A stretch of 11,253 bases of DNA, from contig JAVZXS010000017.1 in the NCBI GenBank assembly GCA_038886535.1, forward strand, positions 1 through 11,253, read 5' to 3'. Origin of the DNA: Candidatus Micrarchaeia archaeon. GTDB lineage: Archaea > Micrarchaeota > Micrarchaeia > CABMEP01. Every line of letters begins with the position of its first letter. The first letter of the stretch is position 1. Shown here piece after piece: positions 1,949 to 11,253 of this stretch. A program made the translations under genes and the position numbers. The notes under the pieces were generated by a model that was not told where the DNA came from, ran no database searches, and saw only the letters and a list, made by a program, of their open reading frames with translations.

Positions 1949-2611
1949 TTAATTTAGTGATTTAATTTCAATATCAATATTACCTACAAGACTTTCGAGG
2001 ATCTTTTTAGCGGTTTTGATATTTTTTCCTTTTTCGCCGACAAGAAGACCTACTGAACCATTTTCAGAGTAAACAGTAGCCTGTGAGAGAGATTTAAAAT
2101 AAACTACCCTTTGAATTTTATCTTCATAGTAAAGGAGACTTTTAATTAAATCTTCAACATTTTCATGATATTTAACAAAAAGAAACCTGCCTTCTGGAAA
2201 ATGTCTTTTTATTTCACTGCTTGATACGTAGGGTTTGAAGATATCGTTTAAATCTTTATTTGTGAAATTTTTGCTGGTTTTAATAAGAATTTTAAAAAAA
2301 TTCTGATGAATTCCAATTTTTTTAATGCTTAATTCGTAATTAATGAGAGGTTCATGTAAAAGATATTCAATTAATTTTCTTATATAAGCAGGAGACTTTT
2401 GACTAAGAGTAATTCTTGCTCCCTTTATTTCAAAAACAGCAGCCCAGCCTGTATCGCCGACTTTATAGTCATGGGCAGCATATTTTTTTGGCAACTGTGC
2501 AAAAATTTGAGTACCCACTATGTTACATAGAAGACTGTCATGATCAGGCAATTTTTTCACAACCTGAAAAAGAACAAGGTAGTTGATTTTGATTACTGGA
2601 GAGTTAAGCAT
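1949..2611 (-). CDS. NusA-like RNA-binding protein (S1-KH-KH, no N-terminal domain)
   Basis: S1-like 'AQLPKK....YKVGD...AAVFEI..ARITLSQKSPAYIRKL' parallels NusA 'A.LP....y..GDr....v........iilSRt.p.fv..LF'; C-terminal KH 'GLLVGEKGKNIKTAKKIL....IDIEI' parallels 'lAIGk.GqNvrLA..L.g..IdI'. Confidence 0.75.
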   Translation of the reverse strand: MLNSPVIKINYLVLFQVVKKLPDHDSLLCNIVGTQIFAQLPKKYAAHDYKVGDTGWAAVFEIKGARITLSQKSPAYIRKLIEYLLHEPLINYELSIKKIGIHQNFFKILIKTSKNFTNKDLNDIFKPYVSSSEIKRHFPEGRFLFVKYHENVEDLIKSLLYYEDKIQRVVYFKSLSQATVYSENGSVGLLVGEKGKNIKTAKKILESLVGNIDIEIKSLN

Positions 2612-4960: not shown

Positions 4961-5151
4961 CGTATGCCTCCTTTTCTTTTAAGCTGTCTGATTTTTCTCT
5001 CATCCAGTCCTGTTATCCTGATCTGATTGTCAGGCCACATCTTCCTTGGCAGAACTATACATTCAAGAATCTTTTCCTCCAGAAACTCCTTTGAATCTGA
5101 AATTATAACTGCCCATGTTTCCTGTCCTGTTTTAACAGTTGCTACTTCCAT
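4957..5151 (-). CDS. Small hypothetical protein, 64 aa
   Basis: Overlaps both neighbours in the operon; no motif recognised. Confidence 0.65.
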   Translation of the reverse strand: MEVATVKTGQETWAVIISDSKEFLEEKILECIVLPRKMWPDNQIRITGLDERKIRQLKRKGGIR

Positions 5152-5516
5152 TTTTCTTTTGCTTGCCTTATCCAGTTTTTTAAATCTTTCACATTGAAAA
5201 TATAATCTCCATTTACTGAAGTTACAGGGATTTTTCCTTTTTTTACCTGAGTAAAAACAAAACGGTATGGTAGCCCCAGTACCAGAGCGAGATTGCTTAT
5301 TCCCTTTATTGATTCATCCTCAGAAAACGTTTCAATTAAAGAGGAAACAGTGGCTCCAGATTTTCTGGAAGATTCAACCCATCTGAGAATATCATCCACA
5401 TCATAAAGCACCATCCTGCCAAGCTTAACTTTGGGAATTCTGGCAGAAGATATGGTTCTTGGCTTTATATTTAGCAAATTGCAAACTTCAACCTCATTAA
5501 GCAGCAGTCTTTTCAA
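5142..5516 (-). CDS. Tandem excisionase-like (HTH_17/MerR-like) DNA-binding protein
   Basis: Domain 1 'LLNEVEVCNLLNI....IPKVKLGRMVLYDVDDILRW'; domain 2 'LALVLGL..RFVFTQVKKGKIP...VNGDYIFNVKDLKNW'; TTG start with GGAG RBS. Confidence 0.8.
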   Translation of the reverse strand: MKRLLLNEVEVCNLLNIKPRTISSARIPKVKLGRMVLYDVDDILRWVESSRKSGATVSSLIETFSEDESIKGISNLALVLGLPYRFVFTQVKKGKIPVTSVNGDYIFNVKDLKNWIRQAKEKWK

Positions 5517-5703
5517 GGGTCTTCTCCTTCCAGTGTTTTAAATCATTGAAGGGAAATCTCAGAAATCTTCCGATTTTCAGATATGGAAGTCCCCTGCCCA
5601 TGTAGTAATTGAGCATGGTTCTACTTTTTAAATTAAGCACTTCCATTGCTTCCTCTTTAGTAAGGAGCAGTTTTTCTAATTTTTCCTGTTTTTCTCTATC
5701 CAT
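5497..5703 (-). CDS. Excisionase-like HTH_17 DNA-binding protein
   Basis: 'LLTKEEAMEVLNL.SRTMLNYY...GLPYLKIGRFLRF...DL..W'; GGAGG RBS. Confidence 0.85.
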   Translation of the reverse strand: MDREKQEKLEKLLLTKEEAMEVLNLKSRTMLNYYMGRGLPYLKIGRFLRFPFNDLKHWKEKTLEKTAA

Positions 5704-5846
5704 TTTTTTAAATCCTCCAGATTAAAAACATAATTCCACTCATTAAGACGTATGTGAGGTATGTTGTGTTTTTTCACAACCTTTTTAAATTGTCTCCCAT
5801 TTTTAAATCCCATTAACTTTGCAGCCTTTTCAATGTCAAGTAGCAT
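5676..5846 (-). CDS. Excisionase-like HTH protein, 56 aa (absent from ORF track)
   Basis: Manual translation: MLLDIEKAAKLMGFKNGRQFKKVVKKHNIPHIRLNEWNYVFNLEDLKKWIEKNRKN*; same LL..e.A..l / IP.i.l / F...DL..W pattern as its neighbours. Confidence 0.8.
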   Translation of the reverse strand: MLLDIEKAAKLMGFKNGRQFKKVVKKHNIPHIRLNEWNYVFNLEDLKKWIEKNRKN

Positions 5847-6056
5847 ATATATTTATTACTTCCTGCAGAGGGCTTTCTCTAAAGAAAAGTATCTCGTAAA
5901 ATCGAGAGAACAATCAGCGAAAAGGAATCAGAAGCTATTTGAGTTTGTCTTTTTTTTTACTGAGAGAACTTCTCTCCTCCTAAAGAGAGGATTTTTAAGG
6001 CATAAGTAAAACTACAGGGGGCTTTTTACTCTGGAGAGGTAAAACTTAGCTTGCCA

Positions 6057-6227
6057 TTTCAATATGCAAAGCATATTGAAACCTGTTTCTTAATTGTAGG
6101 CTTATTAAACAAACGTAGATACTATAACAAATCCTTCAATAAGAGAGAGATAAAAATATTCCCCTTTATAAGGGGAATAAACTAATCCTGGTTGATTTTC
6201 AATAACTACGAAGTAGTTATTGAAAAT
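6057..6227. repeat. Three perfect hairpins with 3-nt loops
   Basis: TTTCAATATGC-AAA-GCATATTGAAA (6057-6081), TATTCCCCTT-TAT-AAGGGGAATA (6157-6179), ATTTTCAATAACTAC-GAA-GTAGTTATTGAAAAT (6195-6227). Confidence 0.95.
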
Positions 6228-6471
6228 TTTTCCTGGTACTAGTAACAATCTTACAATAAAGTACCATGTTACAATACTATATAAAGCTATCTTAAAAAAT
6301 TAATAATTTATTTATATATACCTTACATGAAAAATTTAAAAATTTTCCTTAAAATTCAAATAGTTACAAAAACGATTTTTAATGTAAAAATTGAACAAAA
6401 ATTAAAAATTTCCCTTGAATTTCAAATATTTCGTTTTAAAGGCTGACCGTTAGAAATAAAAATTTTGATGG

Positions 6472-6480
6472 TTATCCCCA
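6472..6480 (+). promoter_or_regulatory. Putative DnaA box
   Basis: TTATCCCCA, one mismatch from TTATCCACA, 12 bp before the repeat array and after an AT-rich tract. Confidence 0.4.
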
Positions 6481-6492
6481 GGTTTCCTTTAT

Positions 6493-6679
6493 GGATTAAA
6501 ATCCCATTTTTGGGATTATAATCTGTTACACGGATTAAAATCCCATTTTTGGGATTATAATCTGTTACACGGATTAAAATCCCATTTTTGGGATTATAAT
6601 CTGTTACATGGATTAAAATCCCATTTTTGGGATTATAATCTGTTACATGGATTAAAATCCCATTTTTGGGATTATAATC
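6493..6679. repeat. 39-bp tandem repeat, 4.8 copies, palindromic (iteron- or centromere-like)
   Basis: Unit GGATTAAAATCCCATTTTTGGGATTATAATCTGTTACAY starts at 6493, 6532, 6571, 6610, 6649 (last partial); only the final base varies. Confidence 0.97.
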
Positions 6680-6700
6680 CTTCGGAAGGAATATATATGA

Positions 6701-8431
6701 GTGCAGAAAGTTTCGGGCATAATAATTCATCAGATAACAACACGAAGGGGGACTTGGTTTCAGCTCAGGAGCAGAACCTGGGTTTATGTTCCTGATATAA
6801 TTTCTTCCTTTTTGATTGGTTCAAAGGGAGAATTTGAGGGAGAAATCAGACGACAAAGGGGATGTAAGCCTTTTATTTATGTCAGGAATTATTCCATCCC
6901 TGAGCCCTTCAATATTGAAGAAGTAATAAATAAAGTAATGAGGTTACTTGAAAAAATAAATTTTAAAGCAATGAATCTTTTAAAGATTCAAGCAGTTTTA
7001 AATCTGCTTGTTTACTTATTTGTTATTGGCAAAATAGCATTAATCAAGAAACTTGCGAAGTGGAAGGCAAAAAAAATCATTGAATACTGTCATTATCCTT
7101 ACAGTTTTTATTTCAACAAACATCTTGATTTTCAGTCAACGAATCTAATTGCTAATGTTTTAATGGTGGAAGAGAGATATAAAATTTATCCTTATGCTCA
7201 TTTTATTCTTGTTGAGGCATATAAAAGTGGCAAGGAATTTTTAACTATTGAAGAGCTACATAAGAGGGTTTTAAAAGGGTTAAAAAATGAAATCACCCTT
7301 GAAGATTTAAGGCAGGAAATTGAAAATAATTCAAGGAAAATGATAGTTCTTTCAGGGGACAAGGCATATCTCAGTTCAGTTTATTATATGAGACAGAGAT
7401 GCCTTGATATTCTTGCAAATAAGAACCTTCCTTCTTTGAATGTATTTGATGGGTTACCGCAGCAGTTGAGGGCAATTTTACAGTGGAAATATAGTATTCT
7501 TACGGGGCAAGCAGGGACAGGAAAAACCACATTAATTAAGCAGTTGAAAAATTCTTCTTTAAACATAAAATTTACAGCTACAATAGGCAAAACAGCCAAA
7601 AATCTTGATGAATCAGCTACGACGATACATGATCTTCTTAATTATCCAAAATTTCAGATTAAAGAGATTGAAACAGATATTGTTGTGATAGATGAATCAA
7701 GTATGCTTACGTGGCAGTTACTATATCATGCATTAACAAAGATAAAGGGTCATATAATTTTTGTTGGTGATCCAGAGCAGACCTCTCCGGTGCAAGGTGC
7801 TGGAATTTTTAAGGAGATGATAGAAGTAATGCCAGAAGGTTCAGTAAAAAAACTTGAGACAGTTTACAGAACTGTAAATACGAAAAGGGAAATTATTAAA
7901 GCAGTTGATAGAAAAACAGCGATACTTAAGGTTATGAATCTGGCATCATATTTTGAGAAAAAGGGCTATGACTGGCAAATACTTACACCCTTAAAGAGGG
8001 TTGCTTATGACCTAAACAATAGGATTCAATATTGTTTCAGGGGTAATGGCTCTTCTGAACCGTTTAAAGTTGGTAACAGGGTTATGTTTTTAAAGAACTT
8101 AAGAATAGATGGAATGCTTGTAGCGAGCAATGGGCAGACTGGAACTGTAGTTGGTAGAGATGGTCAATACTATGTAGTTCGTTTTGGTGACAGATTGATT
8201 AACTGTCTTGAAGAAGAAATTGCCCTTGCTTATGCTATGACCATACATAAAGGGACAGGTTCTGAACATGATTATGTTATATGTTACATACCTTATGGAA
8301 TGGGTAAAAATGAAGAATTTTTCTCAGATGATTTAATAGAAGTTGCAGATACCCGGGCAAAAGTAAAGACAATTTTTATATGTGAAGATACCCAAACAGT
8401 ATCAAGGATTAAAAACTATGTCATGACATAG
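6701..8431 (+). CDS. RecD2/TraA-like SF1B DNA helicase
   Basis: Walker A GQAGTGKTT, Walker B VVIDESSML, motif III VGDPEQ.SPV, IV LETVYR, 2B 'FKVGNRVM..KN....NGQTG.V', V AYAMTIHKGTGSE, VI TRAK; RecD2-like N-terminal extension. GTG start uncertain. Confidence 0.88.
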   Translation: MQKVSGIIIHQITTRRGTWFQLRSRTWVYVPDIISSFLIGSKGEFEGEIRRQRGCKPFIYVRNYSIPEPFNIEEVINKVMRLLEKINFKAMNLLKIQAVLNLLVYLFVIGKIALIKKLAKWKAKKIIEYCHYPYSFYFNKHLDFQSTNLIANVLMVEERYKIYPYAHFILVEAYKSGKEFLTIEELHKRVLKGLKNEITLEDLRQEIENNSRKMIVLSGDKAYLSSVYYMRQRCLDILANKNLPSLNVFDGLPQQLRAILQWKYSILTGQAGTGKTTLIKQLKNSSLNIKFTATIGKTAKNLDESATTIHDLLNYPKFQIKEIETDIVVIDESSMLTWQLLYHALTKIKGHIIFVGDPEQTSPVQGAGIFKEMIEVMPEGSVKKLETVYRTVNTKREIIKAVDRKTAILKVMNLASYFEKKGYDWQILTPLKRVAYDLNNRIQYCFRGNGSSEPFKVGNRVMFLKNLRIDGMLVASNGQTGTVVGRDGQYYVVRFGDRLINCLEEEIALAYAMTIHKGTGSEHDYVICYIPYGMGKNEEFFSDDLIEVADTRAKVKTIFICEDTQTVSRIKNYVMT

Positions 8432-9195: not shown

Positions 9196-9717
9196 CTACT
9201 CCATTTTATAGAAGATGGAGACTTCTTGCGAGAGTTTTGTTAAATATTTTTCTACTCTAAACTTTATAACATCTTGAGAAACTTGAAAAAATTTTGAAAG
9301 ACTGTTGGTGGAGCAATTCATATTTGTTATTTGTTTTAACTTATCTGTTGGCACCAGAAGTTCAGAGGCAAAAATATTAGCTTCTTTTTCCAACTTACCA
9401 TTTTTTAATTCATAGAGGTTGCCAATTTCACACATAATCTGTTGTTTTTTTAAGTGATTTAATACAATATGACCTATTTCATGTGCAATAGTGAATCTTT
9501 TGTGGTTGAAAGGTTTACTAATATTTACTCCTATTATATATGGATATTCAGGATTGTTAACTTCTATGACGAGCCCTGAAATTTTAGGAGGTAATTTTTC
9601 AAAAATAATAATAGCTCCTACAGCCTCTGCAGCTTTATATAGATTTACTGGGAAACTGTAAAGATTATTTTTCTTTAGGAAACCTCTTGCGAGAGCTCTT
9701 ATGCTTTCCTCTGTCAT
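9196..9717 (-). CDS. ImmA/IrrE-family zinc metallopeptidase (anti-repressor)
   Basis: 'RFTIAHEIGHIVL' (HEXXH), 'EKEANIFASELLVP', C-terminal 'LSKFFQVS....R'. Confidence 0.93.
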   Translation of the reverse strand: MTEESIRALARGFLKKNNLYSFPVNLYKAAEAVGAIIIFEKLPPKISGLVIEVNNPEYPYIIGVNISKPFNHKRFTIAHEIGHIVLNHLKKQQIMCEIGNLYELKNGKLEKEANIFASELLVPTDKLKQITNMNCSTNSLSKFFQVSQDVIKFRVEKYLTKLSQEVSIFYKME

Positions 9718-10360
9718 GAGTTTTCCTTTTATAAGCTTCTATAATACTAATTATACCATCGACAAGAGAATTTATATCTTCACTGGATAAATCTTCAAGA
9801 CTTCTGAGGAGAGAGGAAATTTTATCATATTTTAGGAGATTTTTTACGTTATCTGGTACGTAATTAGCAGCCAGAAGATAGTCATATACTGATTGATTTA
9901 GAGCCATAGCAAGGGCAACAACATCTTTTCTTGAGATAATTCCTCTATATTGGAGAATGTTGTTTATAATTTCTTTATTTATCCCTGAATTTTGTGATAT
10001 TTCGTCTATGTTTTTGTTTTCTAAATCCTTTTTAAGTTTTTCAACAAATTCAATAGGCATGCTTTCAGTAGGGATGATTTTTTCAATTTTTTCCTTTTCT
10101 ATACTATTCCTGGCTTCTTCAGCAATTTTTGAGAGAGCCTTTGCTGAAAGCAGTTGTTTTGAAATTTGAGCCTCTTCAACTTCATTTTCAGCCAGAGCGT
10201 GGGCAATTCTTCGAATCATATTATCAGATGGTAGTCTCATATCATTTGGGTTTTCAATGGCATAAATATATACATCTGTAACGCCTGCTTTTTTTGCAAG
10301 TTCCCGTGCTTTAATACCCTTTTTAAGCCTTATTTCTTTTAATAATTTTTTGAATTCCAT
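9665..10360 (-). CDS. XRE/ImmR-like repressor with a probable second HTH
   Basis: 'LKEIRLKKGIKARELAKKAGVTDVYIYAIEN.....PS......IA.AL'; second 'IDEISQNSGINKEIINNIL......S......LA.AL'. Start placed at ATG 10360 (MEFKK). Confidence 0.88.
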   Translation of the reverse strand: MEFKKLLKEIRLKKGIKARELAKKAGVTDVYIYAIENPNDMRLPSDNMIRRIAHALAENEVEEAQISKQLLSAKALSKIAEEARNSIEKEKIEKIIPTESMPIEFVEKLKKDLENKNIDEISQNSGINKEIINNILQYRGIISRKDVVALAMALNQSVYDYLLAANYVPDNVKNLLKYDKISSLLRSLEDLSSEDINSLVDGIISIIEAYKRKTHDRGKHKSSRKRFPKEK

Positions 10361-10398: not shown

Positions 10399-10430
10399 TA
10401 TAAATTTCTTGTAACAATAAAAAGGAGGCA

Positions 10431-10460
10431 TTGACACAAACAAATTTATTTGTTTATAAT
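10431..10460 (+). promoter_or_regulatory. Consensus sigma70 promoter with palindromic operator in the spacer
   Basis: TTGACA (10431-10436), 18 nt, TATAAT (10455-10460); AAACAAAT-TT-ATTTGTTT inverted repeat at 10438-10455. Confidence 0.9.
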
Positions 10461-10489
10461 TTTAGAAATACTAATAAATGGAGGGGTAA

Positions 10490-11059
10490 ATGGATAATTC
10501 AATATTATTAGAAGAATATCTTGAAAAATATTCAGAAGAGGCTATGAGATGGTATGAGGACAAAGACATGAGAAATATAATTCAAAAGGTTATAAATCAG
10601 ATAAAGCAGTATAACAGAGTTTGTGATGAAGAAGATTACTGGTCAGAAGCGTTTTTAGCTTTACAGATTGGGGTAATAAAATATAATAAGTTTAGAAAAT
10701 ATTCAGTAGGTTTCTCCGAAAATTTCCTTGAGGAAGATGACGAGGAAGTCTATGAGTATCTGTCACGTAATCCCACTATGAAATTTCAGACATTTGCTTA
10801 TTGGTATCTACAAAAAAGACTTTATAAACTTGCAGATATGGGAGATGTTGAATTTATTGTTTCTGTAAATGGAACTGATAACATAATTTCTGCTGAAGAA
10901 TATTATAAAAACAGACATAAATATAATGGTAATGCGAGGTCAGTGCAGAGAGTTTATTCATTTACTGAGCTCGAAGTGGAGAACGATAGAGGAAAGGAAT
11001 GTTTCGAACCTGTGAGTTATGAAGATTTTATTAATATAAAAAGAAACTGTAGGGGGTAA
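10490..11059 (+). CDS. Sigma70 region-2-like protein with no evident region 4
   Basis: 'DEEDYWSEAFLALQIGVIKYN' resembles region 2.2 (eDL.qEg.igL..av.kfd) and 'KFQTFAYWYLQKRL' resembles 2.3-2.4 (kFstYA.wwIr..i); GGAGGGG RBS. Confidence 0.65.
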   Translation: MDNSILLEEYLEKYSEEAMRWYEDKDMRNIIQKVINQIKQYNRVCDEEDYWSEAFLALQIGVIKYNKFRKYSVGFSENFLEEDDEEVYEYLSRNPTMKFQTFAYWYLQKRLYKLADMGDVEFIVSVNGTDNIISAEEYYKNRHKYNGNARSVQRVYSFTELEVENDRGKECFEPVSYEDFINIKRNCRG

Positions 11060-11063
11060 TAAT

Positions 11064-11253
11064 ATGGGTTTAGTGACAGTTGATGAATTTGTCCGAAGTG
11101 GCAGGCTACCAATGGTAAAAAATAAGCATGATGTATATATGCTTATCAGAATGGGTGGACTGAGAGCGATAAAACAGGGAAGAAGGACATATATTGTTAC
11201 TGATAACTCAGATATTGACAGTATAAGCCAGAGTAAGGAAGAAAGAAACAAGA
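11064..11253 (+). CDS. Excisionase-like HTH protein, partial (runs off the window; absent from ORF track)
   Basis: AGGGGG RBS, ATG 11064: MGLVTVDEFVRSGRLPMVKNKHDVYMLIRMGGLRAIKQGRRTYIVTD...; 'VY.LIR.G.L.A.K.GR...I' is the HTH_17 wing pattern. Confidence 0.7.
   Translation, partial: MGLVTVDEFVRSGRLPMVKNKHDVYMLIRMGGLRAIKQGRRTYIVTDNSDIDSISQSKEERNK

Follow-up and report, generated by a model that had tools for sequence, protein, structure and literature searches.

The contig analysed here (JAVZXS010000017.1 of assembly GCA_038886535.1; 11,253 bp, 33% GC), which was taken whole and is called the window below, encodes near its right-hand end a small sigma-like protein of 189 amino acids (aa). As judged from its predicted structure, residues 1–118 of this protein are a very divergent sigma-70 domain-2 fold and, by alignment, the residues of its presumed core-binding and DNA-melting motifs are near-invariant in its family. 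On balance, and with moderate confidence, we read the protein as the promoter-specificity (initiation) factor of an F-type integrative and conjugative element (ICE) of Thermodesulfovibrio-like bacteria.

Gene and predicted fold of the sigma-like protein

The open reading frame (ORF) of the sigma-like protein extends on the plus strand from an ATG at 10490 to a TAA at 11057–11059, and is preceded on its 5' side by the motif GGAGGGG (10480–10486). Its homologues comprise four close relatives and 38 representatives found at E<=1e-3 among 1.84 billion proteins. An alignment of 40 family members (A2) is the basis of the counts of profile matches, of the structural model and of the column counts reported in this work.

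The AlphaFold model built on this alignment (predicted local distance difference test, pLDDT, 85.2) contains five helices within residues 2–115, followed by strands and short helices. In a VIA-align search, which is independent of Foldseek, sigma domain 2 made up 18 of the 19 top rows (Z 7.5–5.8), all over model residues 1–118, with root-mean-square deviations of 2.4–3.5 Å over 65–84 residues and a single outlier row of 9.5 Å over 132 residues. The structures matched include SigE, sigma-28, WhiG, sigma-70, SigB, pro-sigma-K, SigA domain 2, AlgU and sigma-32. We give weight to this result because the list is uniform and agrees with the hidden Markov model (HMM) matches obtained within the family. 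In fact, Sigma70_r2 of Pfam (PF04542) was matched by 15 of the 40 members at E<=1 (best 9.3e-7), the other 25 giving no match at that level; two distant metagenomic relatives (L009, 28.4 bits; L015, 30.2 bits) are above the curated cut-off of 24 bits of this family, and the relative L027 (23.3 bits) is narrowly under it. Eight of the 40 members also matched phrog_351, annotated as 'RNA polymerase sigma factor', and these matches span only profile positions ~485–583 of 928, which is the region-2 part. In the ESM Atlas, the window protein lies closest to clusters of short viral proteins labelled 'sigma factor' (score 0.96), and a search of PDB sequences with a family profile (A1) returned a single chance row (E 0.43). 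An earlier note on this DNA, made from the sequence alone, had described the gene as encoding half a sigma factor, a description with which the predicted sigma-2 bundle and the Sigma70_r2 matches of the relatives agree.

Motifs of regions 2.2 and 2.3/2.4

Within the predicted domain, EEDYWSEAFLALQIGVIKYNKF resembles region 2.2 and MKFQTFAYWYLQKRLYK resembles region 2.3/2.4, and the acidic string FSENFLEEDDEEVYEYL (residues 75–91, nt 10712–10762) is located between the two. The profile of the 40 family members was aligned by hhalign with RpoD (L020) of G401, the Thermodesulfovibrio metagenome-assembled genome (MAG) that carries the closest relative. The family consensus eDYxqEAylAcxxAvxkY is paired there with LDLIEEGNIGLMKAVDKFKY, and the consensus MkxeTfAyWyiqKrlyk with FKFSTYATWWIRQAITR, so that the conserved columns are aligned to LDLIEEGN... 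and FKFSTYATWWIRQ of RpoD, while about 22 residues of the window protein between the motifs are left unpaired. The statistics of this alignment are weak (E 0.0021, probability 13%), the template being a single sequence. The order of features proposed in the earlier note, namely region-2.2 and 2.3/2.4-like motifs split by an acidic insertion, is recovered by it.

The columns conserved in each motif are listed in Table 1. The places of D49 and E53 correspond, as we take it, to D403 and E407 of Escherichia coli sigma-70, which are involved in core binding, and positions 102, 105 and 106 presumably to Y430, W433 and W434, which are involved in melting of the -10 element. K109 and Y112 of the window protein occupy the places of a glutamine and a threonine in RpoD, presumably the equivalents of E. 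coli Q437 and T440, which read the -12 pair. The conservation of the melting residues favours a working initiation factor over a plug of the sigma site.

The linker between the two motifs ranges across the family from 4 to 68 residues (median 29); it is net acidic in 12 of the 40 members, and 22 have a neutral or basic linker. Since the linker is variable in length and net acidic only in those 12, the acidic loop is a trait of the clade of the window and not of the family, and the suggestion that it mimics nucleic acid, also made in the earlier note, loses its footing.

C-terminal domain

No match to Sigma70_r4 or r4_2 was obtained for the window protein at E<=1 (Pfam), and the AlphaFold model places beta strands and short helices, not a helix-turn-helix (HTH), at residues 119–189. 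The lack of a region-4 HTH, already noticed from the sequence, is thereby corroborated. The place of regions 3 and 4 is taken by a family-specific, beta-rich domain, composed of a hairpin, a basic helix (E-Y-[RY]-K-x-[KR]-[KR]), further strands and an F-x-P motif near the tail. In the basic helix, E137 is present in 32 of the 40 members, an aromatic residue at position 138 in 39, K/R140 in 36 and K/R142 in 38, a conservation which suggests that this basic domain contacts nucleic acid. When folded alone, from an alignment of seven sequences (A7), the domain reached a pLDDT of 64.6. In the ESM Atlas, residues 116–189 were associated with Sigma70_r3 clusters at a score of 0.80, which is the chance level by the figures of the tool.

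Promoter and ImmR/ImmA-like switch

The operon of the sigma-like gene has a strong, host-like promoter of the sigma-70 type that agrees with the consensus at all 12 positions, and faces a divergent ImmR/Xre-like repressor gene, co-oriented with a gene for an ImmA-like metalloprotease (Table 1). The sigma-like gene had been regarded in the earlier note as the first gene under a repressed promoter, which this arrangement upholds. A palindrome (ACAAACAAATTT/AAATTTATTTGT) at 10436–10453, within the promoter spacer, is a candidate operator of the repressor, and ATTGACA, which holds the -35 box, is invariant across four related elements. The ImmR/ImmA-like pair is also present in L002, L007 and L024/L031. 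We consider that the repressor is likely to start with the ATG at 10360 (MEFKKLL...) rather than with the listed TTG at 10417, judging by the forms found in relatives, which have 233–238 aa.

This layout resembles the ICEBs1-type ImmR/ImmA switch, in which a divergent HTH_3 repressor and an M78 protease likewise lie opposite the operon to be activated. In ICEBs1, xis is the first gene to be de-repressed under the ImmR-controlled promoter, whereas in the window the sigma-like gene comes first and an HTH_17 gene second.

Element type and host

The closest relative of the sigma-like protein (80% identity) is encoded on a contig of an uncultured Thermodesulfovibrio MAG (L002), and one family member is annotated in its source record as a hypothetical protein from an isolate of Thermodesulfovibrio. 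On L002, genes 1–5 encode a helicase, a DUF1016_N-like protein, an inserted restriction-modification pair, an ImmA-like and an ImmR-like protein; genes 6–8 the sigma-like protein (194 aa), an HTH protein (172–178 aa) and a ParB_N/coiled-coil protein (404 aa); and genes 9–11 a type IV coupling protein (T4CP), membrane proteins and an HD protein. The inserted pair (2541–4593 of L002, between the DUF1016_N-like and ImmA-like genes) consists of an Eco57I-like methylase and an R.Pab1-like endonuclease, and is absent from the window.

The same type of element is carried by a complete-looking chromosome from the phylum of the Thermodesulfovibrio MAG (G463), where it encodes TraC (E 3.2e-65), TraN (2.3e-19), TraF (5.1e-47) and TraT (9.9e-70), and also T4CP, SLT, DsbC and an S26 peptidase. 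The presence of TraT, SLT, DsbC, S26 peptidase, TraF, TraC and TraN in G463 indicates that the element is conjugative, of the F type, and belongs to a diderm bacterium. Inside the window itself the transfer parts comprise SLT only, and no integrase was seen on its contig. The family profile was detected in 7 of 401 genomes of the phylum of the Thermodesulfovibrio MAG and in 2 of 401 genomes of the phylum to which the genome bin of the window is assigned, these two being the bin itself and one weak match. Searches by tblastn gave no match for the sigma-like protein (P0001) in phages and plasmids, for P0014 and P0019 in phages or for P0016 in plasmids, and scans of IMG/VR with profiles A1 and A3 gave no relative. 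The sequencing runs listed for this DNA are DNA runs from hot springs, with no RNA run among them.

The genome bin is archaeal, with TBP present and Sigma70_r2 absent (the Sigma70_r2 control was positive in 10/10 bacteria). Besides the window (contig C17), we noticed two other contigs of this bin that carry further parts of this element: C31 encodes the C-terminal 282 residues of a ParB-like protein (85% identical to that of L002), followed by a coupling protein, and C7 encodes a TraC that is 56% identical to TraC of G463; among 200 further genomes of this archaeal phylum, even the closest TraC-like proteins reach only 22–28% identity. Since peptidoglycan and outer-membrane parts would be senseless in such an archaeon, we attribute C17, C31 and C7 to a bacterial ICE; from their gene content, they were most likely mis-binned with the archaeon through similar composition. 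In this way, an archaeal genome bin would be flagged as containing bacterial ICE sequence on at least three contigs. The binning question is not settled by composition, since tetranucleotide distance fails to separate C17 from other short contigs of the bin. A VirB4-like gene is present on a further contig of the bin (C8), and has distant relatives in the archaeal phylum.

Proposed mode of action

Once the repressor is inactivated, the sigma-70 holoenzyme of the host would transcribe the operon of the sigma-like gene. The region-2.2-like helix of the sigma-like protein would then dock on the beta-prime clamp helices of the host core RNA polymerase, and the conserved aromatic residues F102, W105 and Y106 would open a -10-like element. 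In this manner, the protein would direct transcription of element genes that have no host-type promoters, candidate targets being the helicase operon and, on the minus strand, the long transfer operon with its start at 5846. The basic C-terminal domain, the co-translated HTH_17 protein or the two together would make the upstream contacts that region 4 normally provides. A search of 5800–6720, upstream of the transfer operon, gave no sigma-70-like site on the minus strand, which is weak evidence for this mode of action; in an alignment of the same stretch with G463, conservation was confined to the repeat array and the beginning of the first gene.

Several observations weigh against an initiation factor. 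No target promoter motif of the sigma-like protein was found. The window protein has no match in Pfam (E<=1), PHROG (E<=0.1) or NCBIfam (E<=1), and stands consequently below the curated cut-off of Sigma70_r2. The profile searches against Sigma70_r2 and Sigma70_r4 that the earlier note had suggested gave, in this respect, a divided answer, the former being positive for 15/40 family members and negative for the window protein, and the latter negative for the window protein as well. A Foldseek search with the full model against PDB and BFVD returned nothing at E<=0.001 (best sigma row E 0.13), and the VIA-align Z values count as 'middling' for helical domains by the tool's own note. For the model of the C-terminal domain, VIA-align gave a best Z of 4.1 with OB-like, HypC and NusG-domain rows mixed, and no fold could be assigned. 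Furthermore, the bin contains no bacterial RNA polymerase with which the protein could pair and, the bin being archaeal, the sigma reading depends on the contig being bacterial.

The downstream HTH gene and a possible two-subunit form

A second gene starts 4 nt after the stop codon of the sigma-like gene, with an AGGGGG ribosome-binding site inside the 3' end of the latter, and is cut by the end of the contig. An HTH gene at this distance had been described before, and the assignment holds, with matches to HTH_17 (E 0.0051, 17.5 bits against a cut-off of 27) and to the TIGR01764 excisionase model (E 0.0033) that are weak and below the curated cut-offs.

We surveyed this gene cassette in 14 relatives with downstream sequence (L002, L006, L007, L008, L009, L014, L015, L016, L023, L024, L026, L027, L028 and L029), which have 22–85% identity and a GC content of 31–58%. 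A gene of ~170–330 aa is found next to the sigma-like gene in all 14, and its product has an HTH-family match in 8 of the 12 that were scanned. The third gene is ParB_N-like in 13 of the 14 relatives, L026 having an antirepressor-like gene in that place. In the clade of the window, full-length partners have 172–229 aa, with an HTH_17-like motif at the N-terminus and a short hydrophobic segment at the end, while the partners of the distant clade have their HTH_17 motif in a central position, near residue 145. The hydrophobic tail (L002 6608–7123; P0054; P0055; L024 912–1487) consists of 11–15 very hydrophobic residues followed by a few charged ones, and is too short for a clear membrane helix.

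A two-subunit form of the sigma-like protein with the HTH protein is possible. Its strict version, an obligate split sigma in which the sigma-2 protein and the HTH_17 protein act together and the HTH takes over from region 4 the recognition of upstream promoter DNA, is a sub-case nested in the initiation-factor reading and not an exclusive rival of it; we consider it rather unlikely, though it is the best placed of the alternatives. The 4-nt spacing, the ribosome-binding site of the second gene inside the first, and the pairing in 14/14 relatives with an HTH-family match in 8/12 speak for such a factor. The partner of L023 contains, in addition to HTH_17 (E 8.6e-14), a second HTH that matches Sigma70_r4 (E 1.5e-4, 21.6 bits, under the cut-off), and Sig7-Sig8 of Tn916 offers a reported precedent in an ICE. 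However, the HTH of the partners is of the excisionase/MerR-like HTH_17 type, and matches to Sigma70_r4 remain below the cut-off (12.8 bits for the partner of L014); no clear HTH family match was obtained for the partners of L008, L027 and L029. The partner profile aligned by hhalign with region 4 of RpoD was not significant (E 0.15, probability 0.4%), and the partner profiles of the window clade and the distant clade, with the HTH N-terminal in one group and central in the other, show no demonstrable homology to each other. An HTH_17 gene in this place could also be a plain excisionase or regulator gene, as xis in ICEBs1. The complex predicted for the sigma-like protein of L002 (A6) and its HTH partner (A5) scored 0.11 against a mark of 0.32, the partner's own fold being uncertain, and weighs neither in favour of binding nor against it.

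Explanations other than an initiation factor

The earlier note had offered the choice between a partner-dependent sigma and a sigma competitor. The first has in its favour the conserved pairing with an HTH gene, and against it the lack of significant likeness between the partner and region 4; the second is less likely than a working sigma. As a polymerase-binding modulator or competitor, the protein would fill the sigma-2 site and damp or re-route host transcription, having no promoters of its own. The absence of region 4 would suit this role, as would the fact that the region-2.2-like helix is the best conserved part (D49 40/40, Y50 38/40, A54 38/40) and the reported toxicity of overproduced alternative sigmas in the Tn916 system (10.64898/2026.10.01.756105). 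Nevertheless, we judge a competitor improbable, and less likely than a working sigma, because the aromatics that would open the -10 element (those at 102 and 106, and W105) are kept in 37–39 of the 40 members. Together with K109, they match the core-binding helix in conservation, and a pure competitor would not need them. The conserved basic C-terminal domain, which suggests contact with nucleic acid, points in the same direction.

The protein could alternatively bind DNA independently of the polymerase, recognizing single-stranded DNA (ssDNA) or repeats, such as the 39-bp array of the window or an oriT, and act with the HTH and ParB-like proteins as an accessory of the relaxosome, of replication or of partition. 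Isolated sigma-2 domains do bind -10 ssDNA without polymerase (PDB 3UGO, row 15 of the VIA-align list), a case discussed in a survey of sigma domains (10.64898/2026.10.08.757525). The 39-bp array, with 4.8 copies, is located beside the helicase gene, an array occupies the same place in G463, and the cassette includes a ParB_N protein. A DNA binder of this kind would, however, leave the conserved region-2.2-like helix unexplained, since we know of no role for region 2.2 of sigma-70 apart from core binding, and the position of the gene as the first after de-repression suits a regulator; we rate this explanation slightly lower still than the competitor.

Very improbable, and drawn by analogy, is the proposal that the sigma-2-only factor, the HTH_17 adaptor and the ParB_N/coiled-coil protein form one transcription machine as in T4 late transcription, where the region-4-less gp55 and the co-activator gp33 are activated by the DNA-loaded sliding clamp gp45: the ParB-type protein, once loaded onto element DNA (for instance on the 39-bp array, 6493–6679), would slide like ParB clamps and supply the activating contact that normally comes from the -35 element, and expression of the transfer genes would then depend on the state of that DNA. 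Gene order and the lack of region 4 are the only points in favour of this variant.

Comparison with known systems

The window protein shares with sigma-70 domain 2 (PF04542; extracytoplasmic function (ECF)/group 4 sigmas, RpoD L020) the fold over residues 1–118, the two motifs in the same order, the region-2.2 Asp/Glu and the three aromatics of region 2.3. It differs from it in being under every HMM threshold and in belonging to a family with an insertion of 4–68 residues between regions 2.2 and 2.3. Compared with RpoD, it has no regions 3 and 4, a beta-rich domain standing there instead, and has K109/Y112 for the Q/T pair.

T4 gp55 is of similar size (184 versus 189 aa) and is likewise a region-2-only, sigma-like factor of a mobile element that needs helpers. 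The parallel with gp55 drawn in the earlier note does not extend to the sequences: hhalign of the family alignment against gp55 gave a probability of 0.1% (E 0.53), and we rejected kinship. T4 gp55 is itself marginal to Sigma70_r2 (E 0.086), and is absent from the 50 VIA-align structure rows listed.

The split sigmas (SigO-RsoA, Tn916 Sig7-Sig8 and SPO1 gp33-gp34) resemble the window in having two adjacent genes, whose pairing is conserved. The Tn916 report describes Sig7-Sig8 as a two-subunit sigma encoded by an ICE, which drives the main promoter of the element (10.64898/2026.10.01.756105). As in the window, two adjacent small ICE genes are proposed there to drive the element's own promoters after activation. 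According to the same report, the first gene of Tn916 is region-4-like and the second RsoA-like, whereas in the window an HTH_17-type gene comes second, after a gene whose product has the whole of sigma-2 plus an additional domain; furthermore, the switch of the window is ImmR/ImmA-like and its presumed hosts are diderms with an F-type apparatus.

The survey mentioned above reports that 'domain-2-only' proteins, and likewise those with sigma-4 only, occur commonly among bacteria and phages (10.64898/2026.10.08.757525). The window protein resembles the domain-2-only class in having sigma-2 and no sigma-4. The survey used Pfam trusted cut-offs, which most of this family, the window protein included, fails to reach, and the C-terminal domain, the ICE context and the gene cassette are not described in the part of it that was accessible (10.64898/2026.10.08.757525). 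In the literature searched, we found no account of the sigma-like family, of its C-terminal domain, of the cassette, or of a sigma-2-only protein in an ImmR/ImmA-controlled ICE operon.

Element-encoded sigma factors set the timing with which conjugative elements and phages take over host transcription. If our reading is correct, the sigma-like family would be a second and different ICE sigma solution after the recent Tn916 report, one that combines a complete melting domain with a new C-terminal domain replacing regions 3 and 4, under an ImmR/ImmA switch. Given its small size (~190 aa), the protein would be convenient for testing what a minimal sigma requires for promoter-specific initiation and what replaces -35 recognition. 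Such proteins are missed by standard sigma HMMs, as seen from the window protein, without any Pfam match, and from the 25/40 members without Sigma70_r2.

Features of the window

Table 1. Positions of the features discussed in the text and conserved columns of the sigma-like protein (n, members with the residue among the 40 aligned)
Feature	Residues or columns	Position (nt)	Strand	Basis
Sigma-like gene (P0001)		10490..11059	+	4 close and 38 representative homologues
Predicted sigma domain-2 fold of five helices; includes both motifs (2.2-like, 2.3/2.4-like)	1-118	10490..10843	+	Model, VIA-align, hhalign, column conservation
Region 2.2-like columns	D49 (n=40), Y50 (38), E53 (32), A54 (38)			A2 column counts
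Variable linker and helix between the 2.2-like and 2.3-like helices	66-96	10685..10777	+	Holds FSENFLEEDDEEVYEYL; pLDDT 62 at residues 71-80
Region 2.3/2.4-like columns	M97 (n=39), F/Y102 (39), W105 (39), Y/F106 (37), K109 (37)			A2 column counts
Family-specific beta-rich C-terminal domain, in place of regions 3 and 4	119-189	10844..11056	+	Secondary structure, conservation
HTH_17/excisionase-type gene, 5' part (63 codons), cut by contig end		11064..11253	+	HTH_17, TIGR01764; aligned with L002, P0054, P0055, L007
Sigma-70-type promoter of the sigma-like operon, TTGACA-18-TATAAT		10431..10460	+	12/12 matches
ImmR/Xre-like repressor, N-terminal HTH_3, divergent from the sigma-like gene		9665..10360	-	HTH_3 E 3e-11; phrog_8/phrog_3 repressor
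ImmA-like metalloprotease (Peptidase_M78), 173 aa, same orientation as the repressor gene		9196..9717	-	PF06114 E 9.5e-19; phrog_87 metallo-protease E 7.1e-23

The 39-bp tandem repeat (4.8 copies, 99% matches, 6493–6679) lies immediately upstream of the helicase gene, and each unit has internal inverted repeats (GGATTAAAATCC, GGGATTATAATC). The array found at the same place in G463 shares with it the core AACAGATTA...AAAATGG. From its layout, the array may be an iteron, centromere-like or oriT array, and the ORF that crosses it on the minus strand (6422–6730) is probably spurious.

The helicase (6701–8431, plus strand, 576 aa) is of the RecD/TraI type (AAA_30, UvrD_C_2). Its N-terminal ~250 residues have no family match and are a candidate relaxase; neither the window nor the scanned L002 genes nor a 40-kb stretch of G463 has a recognised relaxase.

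The long minus-strand operon is headed by three successive small genes of the HTH_17 (excisionase/AlpA) type (5142–5846) and extends to the SLT gene at 38–562; its 124-aa HTH_17 protein has two HTH_17 stretches. A protein of ~210–220 aa with a weak NusA-like KH match recurs in the window (1949–2611, minus strand) and in L009 (5008–5637, minus strand). In the distant clade (L009–L016), the gene of this protein is divergent from the sigma-like gene, in the place occupied in the window by the ImmR-like gene. In L007, one of the metagenomic relatives, a Cas6-like gene (2235–2966; Cas_Cas6_C, E 1.8e-7) is located ~3 kb upstream of the ImmA/ImmR pair.

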